From assembly GCA_963706605.1 (NCBI GenBank), contig OY970165.1:2175517-2239516 (forward strand): 64,000 nucleotides of DNA. The letters run 5' to 3'. This DNA comes from an uncultured Solirubrobacterales bacterium (GTDB lineage Bacteria > Actinomycetota > Thermoleophilia > Solirubrobacterales > 70-9). Of the stretch, positions 31,620-39,140 are shown piece by piece (positions within the stretch are counted from its first letter, which is position 1; each line of letters begins with the position of its first letter). A program made the position numbers and the translations under genes. Under the pieces are notes generated by a model. That model was not told the DNA's origin, ran no database searches, and saw only the letters and a list, made by a program, of their open reading frames with translations.

Positions 31620-31693
31620 GGGGCGGTAGCTCAGTTGGTTAGAGCAGCGGACTCATAATCCGTGGAGCGCAGGTTCGAGTCCTGCCCGCCCCA
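31620..31693 (+). tRNA. tRNA-Met (CAT); could alternatively be a lysidine-modified tRNA-Ile2
   Basis: Acceptor GGGGCGG/CCGCCCC, anticodon loop CTCATAA, T-arm GCAGG-TTCGAGT-CCTGC, discriminator A. CCA is not encoded. Confidence 0.9.
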
Positions 31694-31760
31694 TCCCCAG
31701 TGGGCCGCCTCTCTGCGTCGGCAAAGTAGACTCGCTAAGTACCGAGATGAAGATCGCGGG

Positions 31761-33134
31761 ATGTGGGGGAGATCGATGATGTTCGGGGGAGGCACGGATC
31801 CCTTGCGTACGCATGCACCTCACTCGTGGTTTCTGCGCCTGACCATTGCCGGCTGCTTGGCGGCGGGTTTGGTCGCGCCGCCCGCGGGCGCTGCGCCAGG
31901 CTGGTCGCGCCCGATGAATGTCTCCGGGGTTATGAGCATTGGCGAAGAATCCCCGTCGGTGGATGTGGATTCCAGAGGCAATGCGACCGTCGTGTGGCGG
32001 CGATACCGCGGCGGAAAACTCATCTACGAGAGCGCGGTGCGGCAAGCCGGCGGACCTTGGTCCACTCCATCCCGTTTCTTTGGCGGTTTGGAAGATGCGT
32101 ATGGATTGCAGATCGCCGTCGATCCCCTGGGCAACGAGACGGCCATCTGGGGGCGCCGTGTGGGTCGCTCCTGGGTCGTCCAGAGCGCGACCCGCTCAGT
32201 CGGAGGGAGCTGGTCGGCGCCGGTCACCCTCTCCGCAGCTGGCGCGGGTTCAGCGCTCGTAGCGGCCGGCCCTGAAGGCAACGCGACTGCGGTCTGGCTC
32301 TTGGAACGGGAGGAAGGTTGGCGCTCGGTCGTCCAAAGCGCGACCCGGTCGGCTGGAGGGACCTGGTCGGCACCGGTGACCCTGTCTCCACCGAGAAAGG
32401 CCGCCCAATTTCTCCAAATCGCACTTGACCCCCAGGGCGGCGCAACTGCGGTCTGGAGAGAGGAATACAGCGGTGCAATTGAAAGCTCGACCCGCACATC
32501 CGGAGGGATCTGGTCGGCGCCGGTCGCACTCTCTGCCAATGGAGTAGTTGGCGGTTGGCCCCAGGTGGCTGTGGATTCCCAGGGCAACGCGACGGCGGTC
32601 TGGGCAGGCAGTGCGTCCAATAGCCGTCGGATCCAAACTGCGACCCGCCCGGCCGGTGGGACCTGGTCGGCGCCGGTCAGCATCTCCAAGGCGGGGCACC
32701 GCCACGTACAGGACCCGCAGATCGCGGTCAGCCCCCAGGGCGAGGCGACCGCGATCTGGCAACGTTCCAACGGTAGTTATCTCGTCGTCCAGGGCGCGAC
32801 CCGCCCGGCCGGAGGGGGCTGGTCGAGGCCGGTCGACATCACTACCGGTGACGGACGGGGTGGGCAGCATCTGCGGCTGGTGGTGGATTCCTGGGGCAAC
32901 GCGACCGCGATCTGGGAGGGCTACGACACCCGCCCCGGCCCCAACTTCGCCATCCAGGCGGCGAAGCATCCGCCTGGAGGTGCCTGGTCGCAGCCCGCCG
33001 ATATCTCCCGTTGGACGAAGAGCCTTGGCGAACCGCAGATTGCTGTCGATCCGCAGGGCAGATCAACCGCAATCTGGGTAATCGGCACTAAGGGCGGCGC
33101 GGTCATCCAATCTGCCACCTCGGTCAGGAGGTAG
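31761..33134 (+). CDS. Secreted repeat protein, probable beta-propeller (about eight ~47-aa repeats with GGxWSxPVxLS / GNATAVW motifs)
   Basis: Start trimmed (ATG 31761 or 31776) because ORF 31662..33134 begins inside the tRNA. It has a hydrophobic N-terminal segment (FLRLTIAGCLAAGLVAPPAGAAPG). Repeats include ...VQSATRSAGGTWSAPVTLS...DPQGNATAVW. Confidence 0.6.
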   Translation: MWGRSMMFGGGTDPLRTHAPHSWFLRLTIAGCLAAGLVAPPAGAAPGWSRPMNVSGVMSIGEESPSVDVDSRGNATVVWRRYRGGKLIYESAVRQAGGPWSTPSRFFGGLEDAYGLQIAVDPLGNETAIWGRRVGRSWVVQSATRSVGGSWSAPVTLSAAGAGSALVAAGPEGNATAVWLLEREEGWRSVVQSATRSAGGTWSAPVTLSPPRKAAQFLQIALDPQGGATAVWREEYSGAIESSTRTSGGIWSAPVALSANGVVGGWPQVAVDSQGNATAVWAGSASNSRRIQTATRPAGGTWSAPVSISKAGHRHVQDPQIAVSPQGEATAIWQRSNGSYLVVQGATRPAGGGWSRPVDITTGDGRGGQHLRLVVDSWGNATAIWEGYDTRPGPNFAIQAAKHPPGGAWSQPADISRWTKSLGEPQIAVDPQGRSTAIWVIGTKGGAVIQSATSVRR

Positions 33135-33237
33135 AGCGCACGCTGCTCGCTTCACCCGTCCGGGGTCGGGCCTTGATCACGGTGCGCTGAGCGTATGAAA
33201 TCGCCGAGGCAAATCTGTGGTCTGAAGACACCGGAAC

Positions 33238-33384
33238 TTGGTCCCGAAATTGGTCCCCGACTCCACCGAACTGAGCCGAACTCCTTGGACCTGATTCGCC
33301 ATATCAGGCCAGATTCGGCTCTATGGAAGGTTTCCGGCGCGACTCATAATCCGTGGAGCGCAGGTTCGAGTCCTGCCCGCCCCA
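33238..33384 (+). repeat. Composite repeat copy A (103-bp arm + 44-bp tRNA-Met 3' segment)
   Basis: 33341-33384 is identical by eye to tRNA positions 31650-31693. The arm begins TTGGTCCCGAAATTGGTCCCCGACTCCACCGAACTGAGCCGAACTCC... Confidence 0.9.
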
Positions 33385-33498
33385 TGAAGAAATCCGCTTC
33401 ATCTTGCCAATACGCTGGATTCATGGGGCGCCGGTGCTTGCAGTGGTAATGGTTTGCGGGGTGGCCCGCAAAACCCATTGGAACTCAAAGGGATCTCT

Positions 33499-38408: not shown

Positions 38409-38449
38409 CTGGCTTAGGGTACACGTCTCGTGTAGTATCGTGATGAGAA
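38409..38449. promoter_or_regulatory. Divergent promoter/operator region between CHAT gene and RHH-ParE operon
   Basis: Inverted repeat TACACG-TCT-CGTGTA (38420-38434) overlaps a TAGTAT -10-like hexamer (38433-38438) lying 12 nt before the antitoxin ATG. This geometry is typical of an RHH autoregulated operator. Confidence 0.45.
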
Positions 38450-38713
38450 ATGGCTGCCACTGCTAGACGAATCAACGTCACGCTTGACGAGGAGCACGCA
38501 GGTAAGCTCGCGAAGCTGGCGGAGCGGACGCATGTTCAGGAGGGGACCCTTGCCCGCTCGCTTCTTTCGACGGCTCTTGACGATGCCGATCCGGATGCGG
38601 CTCGCATTACTGAAGTCTTGAATGGGATCCCCGGCGCCTGGGAGCGGACCCAGGAGGGACTTGCTCAGGCGGCCCGTGGTGAAGGAACGCCACTCGACGA
38701 GCTGGCATCTTGA
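38450..38713 (+). CDS. Ribbon-helix-helix (CopG-type) antitoxin
   Basis: 87 aa. RRINVTLDEEHAGKLAKLAERTHVQEGTLARSLLSTAL is a typical RHH N-terminus. It lies directly upstream of the ParE-like gene. Confidence 0.7.
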   Translation: MAATARRINVTLDEEHAGKLAKLAERTHVQEGTLARSLLSTALDDADPDAARITEVLNGIPGAWERTQEGLAQAARGEGTPLDELAS

Positions 38714-39007
38714 GTGGCGCAGATCATCGTCACCCCGCAGGCGCGGCGGGACATTGAAGACGCGACCGCGGCCCTTAGTCTCCATGGCGATATCTGGACT
38801 CGTGTCGCGCGCTCGCTAAGAGTTCTCGAAACCTTTCCTTTAGCGGGTCCCGAGCTGGATGGTAGGTGGACGCCGGTTCGATTCATCATTGGTCCGTGGC
38901 CCTGGATGATCTTGCTCTACCGCTACGAAGAGCCGTCGGATCGAGTCTTCGTCGTCGCGATGCACGACGCGCGGTCGGCGACTTCGGCCACGGCGAGTCG
39001 GCCTTGA
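38714..39007 (+). CDS. parE: ParE/RelE-superfamily toxin
   Basis: 97 aa with a GTG start immediately after the antitoxin stop. IIVTPQARRDIEDA...FPLAGPELDG...RFIIGPWPWMILLYRYEEPSDRVFVVAMHDAR matches the ParE pattern. Confidence 0.7.
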   Translation: MAQIIVTPQARRDIEDATAALSLHGDIWTRVARSLRVLETFPLAGPELDGRWTPVRFIIGPWPWMILLYRYEEPSDRVFVVAMHDARSATSATASRP

Positions 39008-39011
39008 AGAC

Positions 39012-39140
39012 TTGGTCCGAAATTTGGTCCCCGACTCCACCGAACTCCTGGATGTAATTCGCTCTATCTGGCGAGACTCGGCTCTATAGAAGGCTCCCGG
39101 CTCGACTCATAGTCCGTTGAATGTTCGAGTCCTTCCCCGC
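39012..39140 (+). repeat. Composite repeat copy E (degenerate; terminal copy of the array)
   Basis: The arm is recognisable but one CCGAACT unit is deleted. The tRNA-derived part GACTCATAGTCCGTTGAATGTTCGAGTCCTTCCCCGC is decayed. Confidence 0.8.

Follow-up and report, generated by a model that had tools for sequence, protein, structure and literature searches.

The window analysed here comprises 64,000 nucleotides (nt) from an uncultured Solirubrobacterales bacterium (contig OY970165.1, positions 2,175,517 to 2,239,516). It contains an intact tRNA-Met gene followed by a tandem array of five short gene units (cassettes), and the cassettes are bounded by copies of one composite repeat. The repeat consists of an arm of ~105 nt and a core, which corresponds to the 3' 45 nt of the tRNA. 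An initial annotation of the sequence had noticed both the repeated tRNA half and the arm preceding it, and both were borne out with these lengths. We describe the array, its counterparts in related genomes, and the integrase-bearing elements that occupy the same tRNA gene elsewhere. The coordinates are collected in Table 1.

Beyond the two perfect cores of repeat units A and B, core identity to the tRNA half is 89% in copy C (5 differences), and copy D is decayed, with an 11-nt deletion in the arm and indels in the core. Units A and B are 91% identical to each other over 151 nt, and every difference lies within the arm. The unit spacings of 1691, 1404, ~1075, ~975, and 2308 nt agree with those reported initially (~1.7, 1.4, 1.1, 1.0, and 2.3 kb). 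A 30-mer of the arm, TTGGTCCCGAAATTGGTCCCCGACTCCACC, matches the window 4 times (expected: 0.00), and no arm copy was found outside the array when the whole window was searched. The arm-only fragment is a decayed junction between cassettes 3 and 4. Both marks of tRNA-targeting islands, a displaced tRNA 3' fragment and an intact target tRNA, are present. The G+C content is 57-70% in the array (mostly 58-66%) and ~62-76% in the flanks (mostly 65-72%).

None of the open reading frames (ORFs) in the cassettes has a recombinase domain, as judged by Pfam and by an iterated tyrosine-recombinase hidden Markov model (HMM), which agrees with the initial annotation. Pfam found no relaxase domain in the window cassettes either. 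The only window genes matching the iterated HMM are located at 8440-9666 and 21790-22827, both distant from the array. As gene callers based on codon usage and on G+C at third codon positions miscalled strands, we used codon-position substitution tests and Pfam censuses instead. The substitution patterns mark the small ORFs in cassettes 3 and 5 as genuine genes.

Conservation over 123 unique copies from many genomes begins ~5 nt before TTGGTCCC, continues through the arm, and breaks off precisely where the tRNA does, at its 3' end; nothing is conserved to the right of the core. Hence, the left ends of the units have no common sequence, as had been noticed in the window. The arm consensus reads as three pairs of direct repeats: TTGGTCCC twice, 12 nt apart; CCGAACTC twice, 11 nt apart; and GATTCG(G)CTCTAT twice, ~21 nt apart. 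Named as candidate binding motifs, they are TTGGTCCC x2, CCGAACTC x2, and GATTCGGCTCTAT x2. RNAalifold returned no meaningful helix on either strand (-1.9 kcal/mol), and Rfam finds tRNAs only, so a structured or known RNA was rejected. With neither a fold nor an Rfam family, the arm looks like a double-stranded protein-binding platform, not an attC-type hairpin or an RNA. The possibility that it is the 3' end or untranslated region of a decayed integrase gene, which would have refuted the idea of the initial annotation, was rejected as well, since tblastn detected integrase sequence beside arms in one relic only. This relic (locus L103, 3333-3665, minus strand) is a truncated pseudogene that is 53% identical to residues 284-394 of the prophage integrase of the window. 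It lies ~200 nt left of an arm, points away from it, and is an unrelated prophage-type remnant inside a cassette.

At least three versions of the tRNA-Met 3' half occur, namely W, S, and one with GCTGG/CCAGC (found near 2500 in the oriented copy of L047), and they differ by compensatory changes in the T-stem. The 5 differences of copy C are not decay: they make up a compensatory variant (C-G to A-T), which predominates among the tRNAs of related genomes. The functional tRNA-Met of the window carries the W variant, which elsewhere travels with cassette family F1. Incoming DNA thus appears to have replaced the 3' half of an essential tRNA gene.

Table 1 Features of the tRNA-Met array (positions within the window)
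Feature	Position	Strand	Remarks
tRNA-Met(CAT), intact	31619-31696	+	ARAGORN; Rfam 76.7 bits
Putative recombination core, 3' 45 nt of tRNA-Met	31650-31694	+	Anticodon loop to 3' end; attB/attL side of the array
Cassette 1 (family F1)	31695-33235	+	One gene, ORF 31662-33134, no Pfam match
Repeat unit A	33236-33385	+	Arm 33236-33340, core 33341-33385 (100% vs tRNA); nhmmer 170 bits
Cassette 2 (family F6)	33386-34639	+	PD40 beta-propeller protein, ORF 33454-34599; Pfam PD40 E=3.6e-23
Repeat unit B	34640-34789	+	Arm 34640-34744, core 34745-34789 (100% vs tRNA)
Cassette 3 (family F3)	34790-35788	mixed	Left and right modules
Cassette 3, left module	34810-35025	-	71-aa gene
Cassette 3, right module	35139-35456 and 35453-35806	+	Two overlapping genes
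Truncated arm, core deleted	35789-35863	+	Model positions 29-108 (nhmmer)
Cassette 4	35864-36690	-	ORFs 35892-36578 and 36358-36648; no family match
Repeat unit C	36691-36840	+	Arm 36691-36795, core 36796-36840 ('S' tRNA variant)
Cassette 5 (family F7)	36841-39009	mixed	CHAT-domain protease and toxin-antitoxin-like pair
CHAT-domain protease, cassette 5	36867-38408	-	Pfam CHAT E=2.6e-28; PADLOC SAVED_CHAT
Toxin-antitoxin-like pair, cassette 5	RHH-like 38450-38713, then 38714-39007	+	Codon-position test
Repeat unit D, distal array end	39010-39137	+	Decayed arm (39010-39103) and core (~39104-39137)
Host genes after the array	Zincin_1 39179-39508, SET 39614-40111, then tRNA-Cys, tRNA-Val		Conserved

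Cassette 1: The true start of its gene is probably downstream of the tRNA end. The gene contains about eight tandem repeats of 147-162 nt (31960-33083), ~51 aa each, with a consensus of roughly ...VDSQGNATAVW..., and the product looks like a secreted repeat or beta-propeller-like protein.

Cassettes 2 to 4: Cassette 2 has a homologue at 89% in L081. Both modules of cassette 3 are found again at the ends of many other cassettes. Its 71-aa and 117-aa proteins (34810-35025, minus strand, and 35453-35806, plus strand) have the motif RYP...FI.AD...PV.I...DGHE in common. Genes of this family occupy the left ends of many cassettes and also occur just 3' of the relaxase gene in the full elements described below, where a 97-aa neighbour is annotated as DUF7718. 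Cassette 4 has no homologue among the fetched loci, and its two ORFs are possibly one frameshifted gene.

Cassette 5: The ribbon-helix-helix (RHH)/ParE label of the small gene pair was given by reading the sequences, with no family hit behind it. The CHAT protein was the sole PADLOC match on the window cassettes.

Arrays and unit exchange in Solirubrobacterales

We scanned one genome per species with an 18-mer that is invariant in all four arms of the window. The scan gave at least 119 tiles of 8 kb (numbered loci, L), nearly all from metagenome-assembled genomes of Solirubrobacterales, and the number of genomes was counted from the contig list. An arm-plus-core profile found at least 233 copies in at least 102 of the 119 tiles listed, from at least about 84 species. 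Among the copies listed, 140 are full-length and 39 are core-only, and 35 of these 39 are tRNA-Met genes according to ARAGORN. All arm copies of a locus share one strand, and the array is located downstream of tRNA-Met wherever the tile covers it. The interval length has a median of 1294 nt, with most values between 0.75 and 2 kb (n = 131 intervals, among the matches listed). In the longest array, copies extend over ~37 kb on one contig (L037, L073, and L087). Upstream of the array, related genomes carry tRNA-Asn and the host genes of the window, so this is one and the same chromosomal locus throughout. Three flank proteins of the window gave no exact-sequence matches, probably since the called starts differ. 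A phage as the master element found no support, as Viral_contigs contained neither the arm 18-mer nor the tRNA-Met half.

Comparison of the locus between related species, as proposed in the initial annotation, identifies the units as discrete modules that are reshuffled between species and horizontally exchanged. Cassette F1 is the most widely shared. It is present at full length and 89-95% identity in nine other genomes (10 including the window), and the homologous stretch is bounded precisely by the core on its left and by the arm on its right. F1 follows the tRNA directly in the window, L050, and L109 and lies within the array, flanked on either side by arm plus core, in L012, L039, L047, L074, L079, L086, and L090. 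Cassette 5, the last in the window array, is the first after the tRNA in L049, and its toxin-antitoxin (TA) module alone forms cassettes in L102, L005, L026, and L060. The families F2, F4, F7, F10, and F17 are found both first and internal in arrays, with differing neighbours. Identity is 72% for the upstream flank vs ~91% for the cassette in L050, 78% vs ~90% in L109, and 77% vs ~90% in L049. Altogether, 134 intervals were grouped into 111 full-length families, 100 of which are singletons.

The cargo is diverse. A Pfam census of 145 cargo ORFs returned 80 families, with types such as Mrr, MmeI, DNA methylases, HEPN, RHS, CHAT, hydrolases, a kinase, and an RNase H-like protein; TA modules and restriction-modification are among the array cargo. 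A second census (59 ORFs) found insertion sequence transposases and type I restriction genes in larger intervals. Neither the window units nor the ~134 intervals of other genomes contain an integrase of the cognate type, i.e., that of the tRNA-Met element described below. The only integrase matches in the 145-ORF census are two members of an inserted three-recombinase element in L052, and the sole cognate-type transfer match in the 145 + 59 cargo ORFs is the relaxase of L071, which is part of the full L120 element.

The insertion in L052 (1837-4690) is a recombinase-in-trio (RIT) element of three tandem tyrosine recombinases inside a 5.3-kb cassette. A homologue of its first recombinase, 77% identical, follows a core in L059 (5313-5951). 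The recurrence of RIT elements in the arrays of independent genomes may reflect a target preference. Being insertions into cassettes, they were rejected as the array recombinase.

Shared cassettes also indicate where the exchange takes place. The W variant of the tRNA half precedes F1 in 6/7 internal copies, even within S-variant arrays. The core that follows the F1 arm is variable: L012, L074, and L086 share the body and an identical arm, and their cores are S, S, and W, respectively. Where copies share the downstream body, core positions 118-150 show 1/96 mismatches against a background of 8.9%. Where they share the upstream body, arm positions 1-40 are linked with it (mismatch 0.4-1.7% vs 3.9%), positions 41-80 are partly linked, and positions 81-105 and the core are unlinked. 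This linkage places the exchange points between mid-arm and the anticodon stem-loop. The pattern agrees with site-specific crossover close to the anticodon loop, accompanied by some conversion between arms, and homologous exchange would be compatible with it as well.

Integrase-bearing elements at tRNA-Met

The route to a recombinase was a region of >7 kb in L071 that ends in an arm and encodes a TrwC/MobF relaxase. Homologues of this relaxase (72-88%) are present on many array-bearing chromosomes. The search for arm copies beside a specific tyrosine recombinase, advised by the initial annotation, succeeded with integrase-bearing elements at tRNA-Met in L120, L125, and L126. L120 has the same synteny as the window, with the Hpt gene, then tRNA-Met (6145-6219), and then the element. 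The P' region of L120 is 103 nt long and contains GGCTCTATAGAGCC and AAATTGGTCCCGAATTGGTCCCGAAA; in L120, L125, and L126, P' has the form GGCTCTATAGAGCC ... TTGGTCCCGAATTGGTCCC. This left (P') end of the element carries the tandem TTGGTCCC motif of the cassette arm. It is followed in L120 by a 386-aa tyrosine integrase, an excisionase-type HTH_17 gene (E=1e-15), helix-turn-helix regulators, a PIN/DUF433 pair, the relaxase, a kinase and other cargo, and finally arm plus core (16564-16702). Ordinary cassettes with further arms come after the element, and Zincin_1 closes the array, as it does in the window.

The elements are 9.4-10.7 kb in size (10.7 kb in L125 and 9.4 kb in L126, with the same P', head, and tail). 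The relaxase is intact in L120; L126 has a truncated form (708 aa), and all that is left in L125 is a 245-aa AAA_30 fragment. L125 and L126 are the genomes of the L074 and L044 arrays, so that L120, L125, and L126 all have units in tandem with an integrase-bearing element. No coupling protein or type IV secretion system genes were called within the 9.4-10.7-kb elements. By its predicted gene content, i.e., integrase, HTH_17 protein, MobF/TrwC relaxase, and no complete conjugation apparatus, the L120-type element belongs to the integrative mobilizable elements (IMEs).

Six independent metagenome contigs (L127-L132) show tRNA-Met, P', and an integrase that is 79-97% identical; Xis follows in L127 and L132 and the relaxase in L132. 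The integrase is represented by >120 protein clusters at 85-98% from many samples, including array-bearing contigs. For comparison, the relaxase of the same element is 72-88% identical, and the host flanks are 72-88% identical at the nucleotide level. Such conservation points to very strong constraint or else to the integrase module having swept recently. The integrase is a generic Phage_integrase protein with SAM-like domains. Approximately 85 residues precede the SAM-like domain, which would leave room for an arm-binding domain.

A sister element at tRNA-Glu(CTC) occupies the same chromosomal site in two species (L121, 8066-19526; L123, 7579-17744). It has the same int-xis-MobF layout, an integrase of 56% identity, a tRNA-Glu core repeat of 43 nt, and a homologous arm, in which TTTGTCCC x2 replaces TTGGTCCC x2; the same replacement is found in the P' region. 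Motif and enzyme thus vary together, and among our observations this speaks most strongly for the tandem 8-mers being arm-type sites of the integrase. The tRNA-Glu element stands alone, with no cassette array behind it. Small relaxase elements are abundant in the lineage, with several per genome. A third MobF-relaxase element (L124, 6454-23147, on the OY969794.1 chromosome) is located beside tRNA-Leu(GAG) and has its integrase on the opposite strand; its defence-type cargo includes Upx-like, PycTM, and Mrr_cat proteins.

Several loci connect the element with the integrase-less units. L122 carries, at the same site in another species, a remainder of 13.2 kb that retains ~50 nt at the start of P' but neither the TTGGTCCC sites nor any of int; it still terminates in arm plus core. 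L120 and L122 are 83-87% identical in their backbones and have unrelated cargo, which matches no cassette. The L122 cargo (13288-17538) includes a Metallophos - GASH - DO-GTPase2 - DO-GTPase1 set, a predicted conflict or defence system. Backbone remnants are present in 2 of the ~134 array intervals: L048 has P' plus TA-module DNA just after a core, and L086 has a C-terminal relaxase fragment that starts 11 nt past a core. Fragments of the cognate integrase were found by tblastn neither in any arm tile nor in the window. Conversely, at least 12 cassettes have as their left end a segment that, in L125 and L126, lies immediately 3' of the relaxase gene; cassette 3 of the window is among them (34814-35054, 81% to the element interior). 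A small minus-strand gene in this segment belongs to the family of the 71-aa ORF of the window, and the homology begins at the stop codon of this gene, 6-30 nt past the core. From these alignments, cargo modules appear to pass between elements and units, and loss of the integrase occurs.

Candidate mechanisms and related systems

We read the region as a tandem accretion array at the 3' end of tRNA-Met, made of integrase-less units that resemble cis-mobilizable elements (CIMEs) and carry attR-type sites of the IME family, and assign this reading a probability of roughly 0.6. Each unit lies between a copy of the tRNA core and an arm plus core that is built like the attR of L120, L125, and L126. 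The array is most likely serviced by the integrase of the tRNA-Met element, in cis or in trans. A unit would comprise 1-3 cargo genes followed by an attR-type site (P arm of ~105 nt plus tRNA core). The integrase of the element is predicted to bind the TTGGTCCC arm-type sites, with the crossover in or near the anticodon stem-loop. By means of this integrase and the HTH_17 protein, the element at the head could recombine its own attL (core plus P') with any downstream arm-core and would then be excised alone or with adjacent units. Element and units would be transferred by means of the relaxase, the mating pore being supplied from elsewhere, and the composite would reintegrate at the tRNA-Met of a new host. 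If the element is later excised alone, the units should be left stacked behind the tRNA. Movement of single units in trans is a possible further route.

The accretion model accounts for the shuffled orders, for the cores that move along on a unit's left and the host-type cores on its right, and for the overwritten tRNA 3' half. A number of observations weigh against it. It gives no origin for new units. The cognate integrase was not found within the 64-kb window or its array, which makes the window array currently an orphan stack. A P' arm is missing from the units, whereas the P' of the element contains arm-type sites. No excision product or circular junction was observed, and a search of metagenomes for the arm-core-P' junction gave 0 matches, with only 6 for the control and hence no power. 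The linkage of the core with the downstream body comes from n = 3 pairs only, 2 of them related, and the linkage of the arm with the upstream body fades gradually, with no sharp break at the core, which fits homologous exchange too. In L050 and L109, F1 stands behind an S-variant tRNA, contrary to the simplest crossover model. Insertion at the head only is not reflected in significant trends, either in the proportion of shared cassettes (47% at position 1 vs 33-57% deeper) or in the repeat score by rank (133, 116, and 86 bits; p=0.23).

The same arrays could alternatively be an integron-like platform, which we consider possible though doubtful. Here, natively integrase-less units of ~1.3 kb would be excised as circles and inserted singly in trans, with arm-core being sufficient and P' dispensable. 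The tight unit sizes (most 0.75-2 kb) with 1-3 genes, the 111 families in 134 intervals of which only two contain backbone remnants, and the TA modules, as in chromosomal integrons, agree with it. So does the conservation of the distal 40 nt of the arm, which contain the arm-type sites: mismatch is 3.9% there vs 16-18% elsewhere over hundreds of copies, and the sites thus seem to be kept functional within the units themselves. Neither circles nor single-unit junctions were seen, however, the units are devoid of the P' arm-type sites of the element, and all observed orders are equally explained by block transfer plus head insertion. Moreover, no integrase is fixed beside the array, the window genes have both orientations, and the site is unfolded. 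A tentative proposal is that the arrays are a working gene-capture platform, comparable to an integron but assembled from other parts, in which a highly conserved lambda-type integrase, delivered by the small relaxase element, would move ~1-kb cassettes with their double-stranded 150-bp sites one by one in trans. The initial annotation had favoured native cassettes served by an external recombinase, which is partly supported. The integrase-less, modular, and exchanged nature of the units was confirmed, and the probable recombinase is external to them; however, integrase-bearing relatives with the same arm exist, and the integrase it had nominated is the wrong one.

Shuffling by homologous recombination is, in our view, unlikely. 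In this case, the repeats would be relics of integration, reordering would depend on RecA, DNA would enter by transformation, transduction, or Hfr-like (high frequency of recombination) transfer from an integrated relaxase element, and the integrase would have no current role. Repeats of 150 bp at 85-100% identity are adequate substrates for RecA, the window array has no cognate integrase nearby, and the gradual loss of linkage along the arm (positions 1-40 linked, 81-105 not) as well as the misfit of L050 and L109 to a fixed crossover point would be accounted for. However, the T-arm part stays with the downstream body (1/96 vs 8.9%) while the adjacent arm is unlinked, so exchange does not run across the whole repeat. 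The arm-type sites are selectively conserved, and a cognate, highly conserved integrase is common in the lineage.

It is improbable that the array is a passive graveyard, in which each unit is the deleted remnant of a full element, immobile and shared by common descent: this follows the standard account of CIME origin (PMC5704250) and is in keeping with the full-size elements that end in the same arm, the int-deleted L122, the remnants in L048 and L086, and the colinearity of the cassette 3 left module with the element interior, but backbone makes up more than half of each 10-kb element and is present in only 2 of ~134 intervals, tblastn detected no integrase fragment in any arm-bearing tile, the L120/L122 element cargo matches no cassette, and shared cassettes have different positions and neighbours, while their ~90% identity vs 72-78% for the flanks does not fit vertical descent. 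Units of ~1.3 kb that are nearly free of backbone cannot result from random decay of 10-kb elements, and the initial annotation was right in not regarding them as random losses. It had also held that colinear full-size islands would reduce the units to simple deletion remnants. Such islands do exist (L120, L125, and L126), next to the int-deleted derivative L122, and colinearity with the window extends to the left module of cassette 3, so the objection holds in part. Decay of an integrative and conjugative element (ICE) or IME is seen for L122, L048, and L086 and partly for this module; cassettes 1, 2, 4, and 5 gave no sign of such an origin, and neither did most other units.

The accretion reading has precedents; the initial annotation had known of no described equivalent. 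CIMEs and accretion-mobilization are known from ICESt1/ICESt3 of Streptococcus thermophilus, and CIMEs are defined in the literature as decayed ICEs or IMEs (both PMC5704250). Like CIMEs, the units are att-flanked, have no integration or transfer genes, and, in L120, L125, and L126, stand in tandem with a related integrase-bearing element at a tRNA 3' end; a composite of element and unit could in principle be excised and transferred together. Unlike CIMEs, the units are very short, with a median of 1.3 kb, can reach dozens in a single array (37 kb in one genome), and are present in at least about 84 species. Almost none has parent backbone, a decay origin is demonstrated for few of them only, and the partner is a relaxase-only IME instead of a full ICE.

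Dehalococcoides has 16 ssrA islands with a six-gene serine-recombinase module at attL and 15 without it, and the module-free islands were proposed by the authors to be CIMEs (PMC3146451). The likeness lies in the tandem islands after one small-RNA gene, the direct repeats of its 3' end with an extra conserved flank, and the strain-specific cargo. Those islands span multiple kb; in our case, the integrase is of the tyrosine type, nearly all units are integrase-less, and a 105-nt arm is located on the attR side. Tycheposons of Prochlorococcus also integrate repeatedly at the same tRNA site and push older ones inward, with partial tRNAs at the boundaries and adaptive or defensive cargo. They have their own integrase and replication genes, and their integrase-less pieces are degenerate remnants (bioRxiv 10.1101/2020.12.28.424599), whereas the integrase-less units here are dominant, uniform, and equipped with a conserved long arm. 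Compared with tRNA-targeting integrase islands in general, the five window units have no integrase of their own; the elements of L120, L125, L126, and L127-L132 have one.

Integrons resemble the arrays in outcome but differ in mechanism. Their attC sites form imperfect palindromes, which are conserved in structure and not in sequence and are recombined as folded single strands by IntI. The arm-core, by contrast, is conserved in sequence, consists of direct repeats, has no consensus fold, and does not qualify as attC. Unit size and number fit integrons; cassettes in one orientation do not, with window genes on both strands. There is no attI-intI-Pc platform beside the window array, and the integrase, where present, is within a 10-kb excisable element with xis and relaxase. 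The recombinase resembles a heterobivalent lambda-type integrase with an excisionase partner. The integron-like logic suggested by the initial annotation hence holds for the outcome (array, diverse cargo, and TA modules) and fails for the mechanism (no fold, mixed orientation, and no fixed integrase). Chromosomal integrons and clusters of attC sites without integrase (CALINs; PMC4889954) likewise have many small, mostly single-gene, site-closed cassettes, diverse and largely unknown cargo, TA modules, and an external recombinase, and their arrays may stand with no integrase nearby.

The pdif modules of Acinetobacter plasmids are recombinase-less gene modules between 28-bp XerC/XerD sites in alternating orientation, presumably moved by an enzyme with its gene elsewhere. 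They share the small, recombinase-less modules with our arrays and differ from the 150-bp, tRNA-derived, directly oriented, chromosomal site. The described framework of CIMEs and accretion thus covers the logic of the system, and the novelty is in its scale, the small uniform units, and the near-absence of parent remnants. We found no description of this array system or of the elements of the lineage in the literature that could be searched.

If the accretion mechanism holds, one chromosomal slot behind tRNA-Met is common to a whole order of abundant soil Actinomycetota, and cis-mobilization would turn from a curiosity of a few ICEs into a lineage-wide, high-capacity system that converges on the integron outcome by way of a lambda-type integrase and a site derived from a tRNA; the gene packets would be stacked, swapped between species, and lost in this slot. 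To our knowledge, classical integrons have not been found in the group of this Gram-positive soil lineage; if the integron-like reading were true, an integron-like cassette economy would operate there. The 150-bp site and the conserved integrase-excisionase pair would be directly testable and might be a tool for high-GC Gram-positives. The arm could serve as a sequence tag for harvesting mobile accessory genes of mostly uncultured bacteria from metagenomes. In addition, the locus appears to be a natural case of an essential tRNA gene whose 3' half is repeatedly overwritten, visible as compensatory T-stem variants.

Other recombinases of the window

ORF 28104-29348, which follows tRNA-Asn, was considered as an integrase and rejected, as it encodes a glycosyltransferase. 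The Xer-type recombinase at 21790-22827 (Phage_integrase, 161 bits) is located between DUF3866 and Fpg in conserved synteny, and the DUF3866 - Xer - Fpg arrangement is also found ~9 kb upstream of tRNA-Met in L125. From this context, it is probably the housekeeping XerC/D. It was set aside as the array recombinase, as no evidence links it to the array and no dif-like motif was seen in the core by eye.

The remaining candidate, 8440-9666, had been put forward in the initial annotation as an enzyme to be tried on arm-core substrates. Positions 1-9700 of the window are the right part of a prophage with a capsid gene (346-1878), a tape-measure-like gene (2553-5273), and small overlapping genes, and 8440-9666 is the prophage integrase at its right end, beside an FtsJ-like gene at 10137. 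As it is only ~29% identical to the cognate integrase and has different repeats, it was rejected as the enzyme of the array. The TTGGTCCC motif is absent from its vicinity. After its stop codon (9676-9700), there is a tandem pair CTGGCGAAC-GAA-CTGGCGAAC of the same design as the TTGGTCCC pair of the cassette arm, which probably represents the prophage integrase's own arm-type sites.

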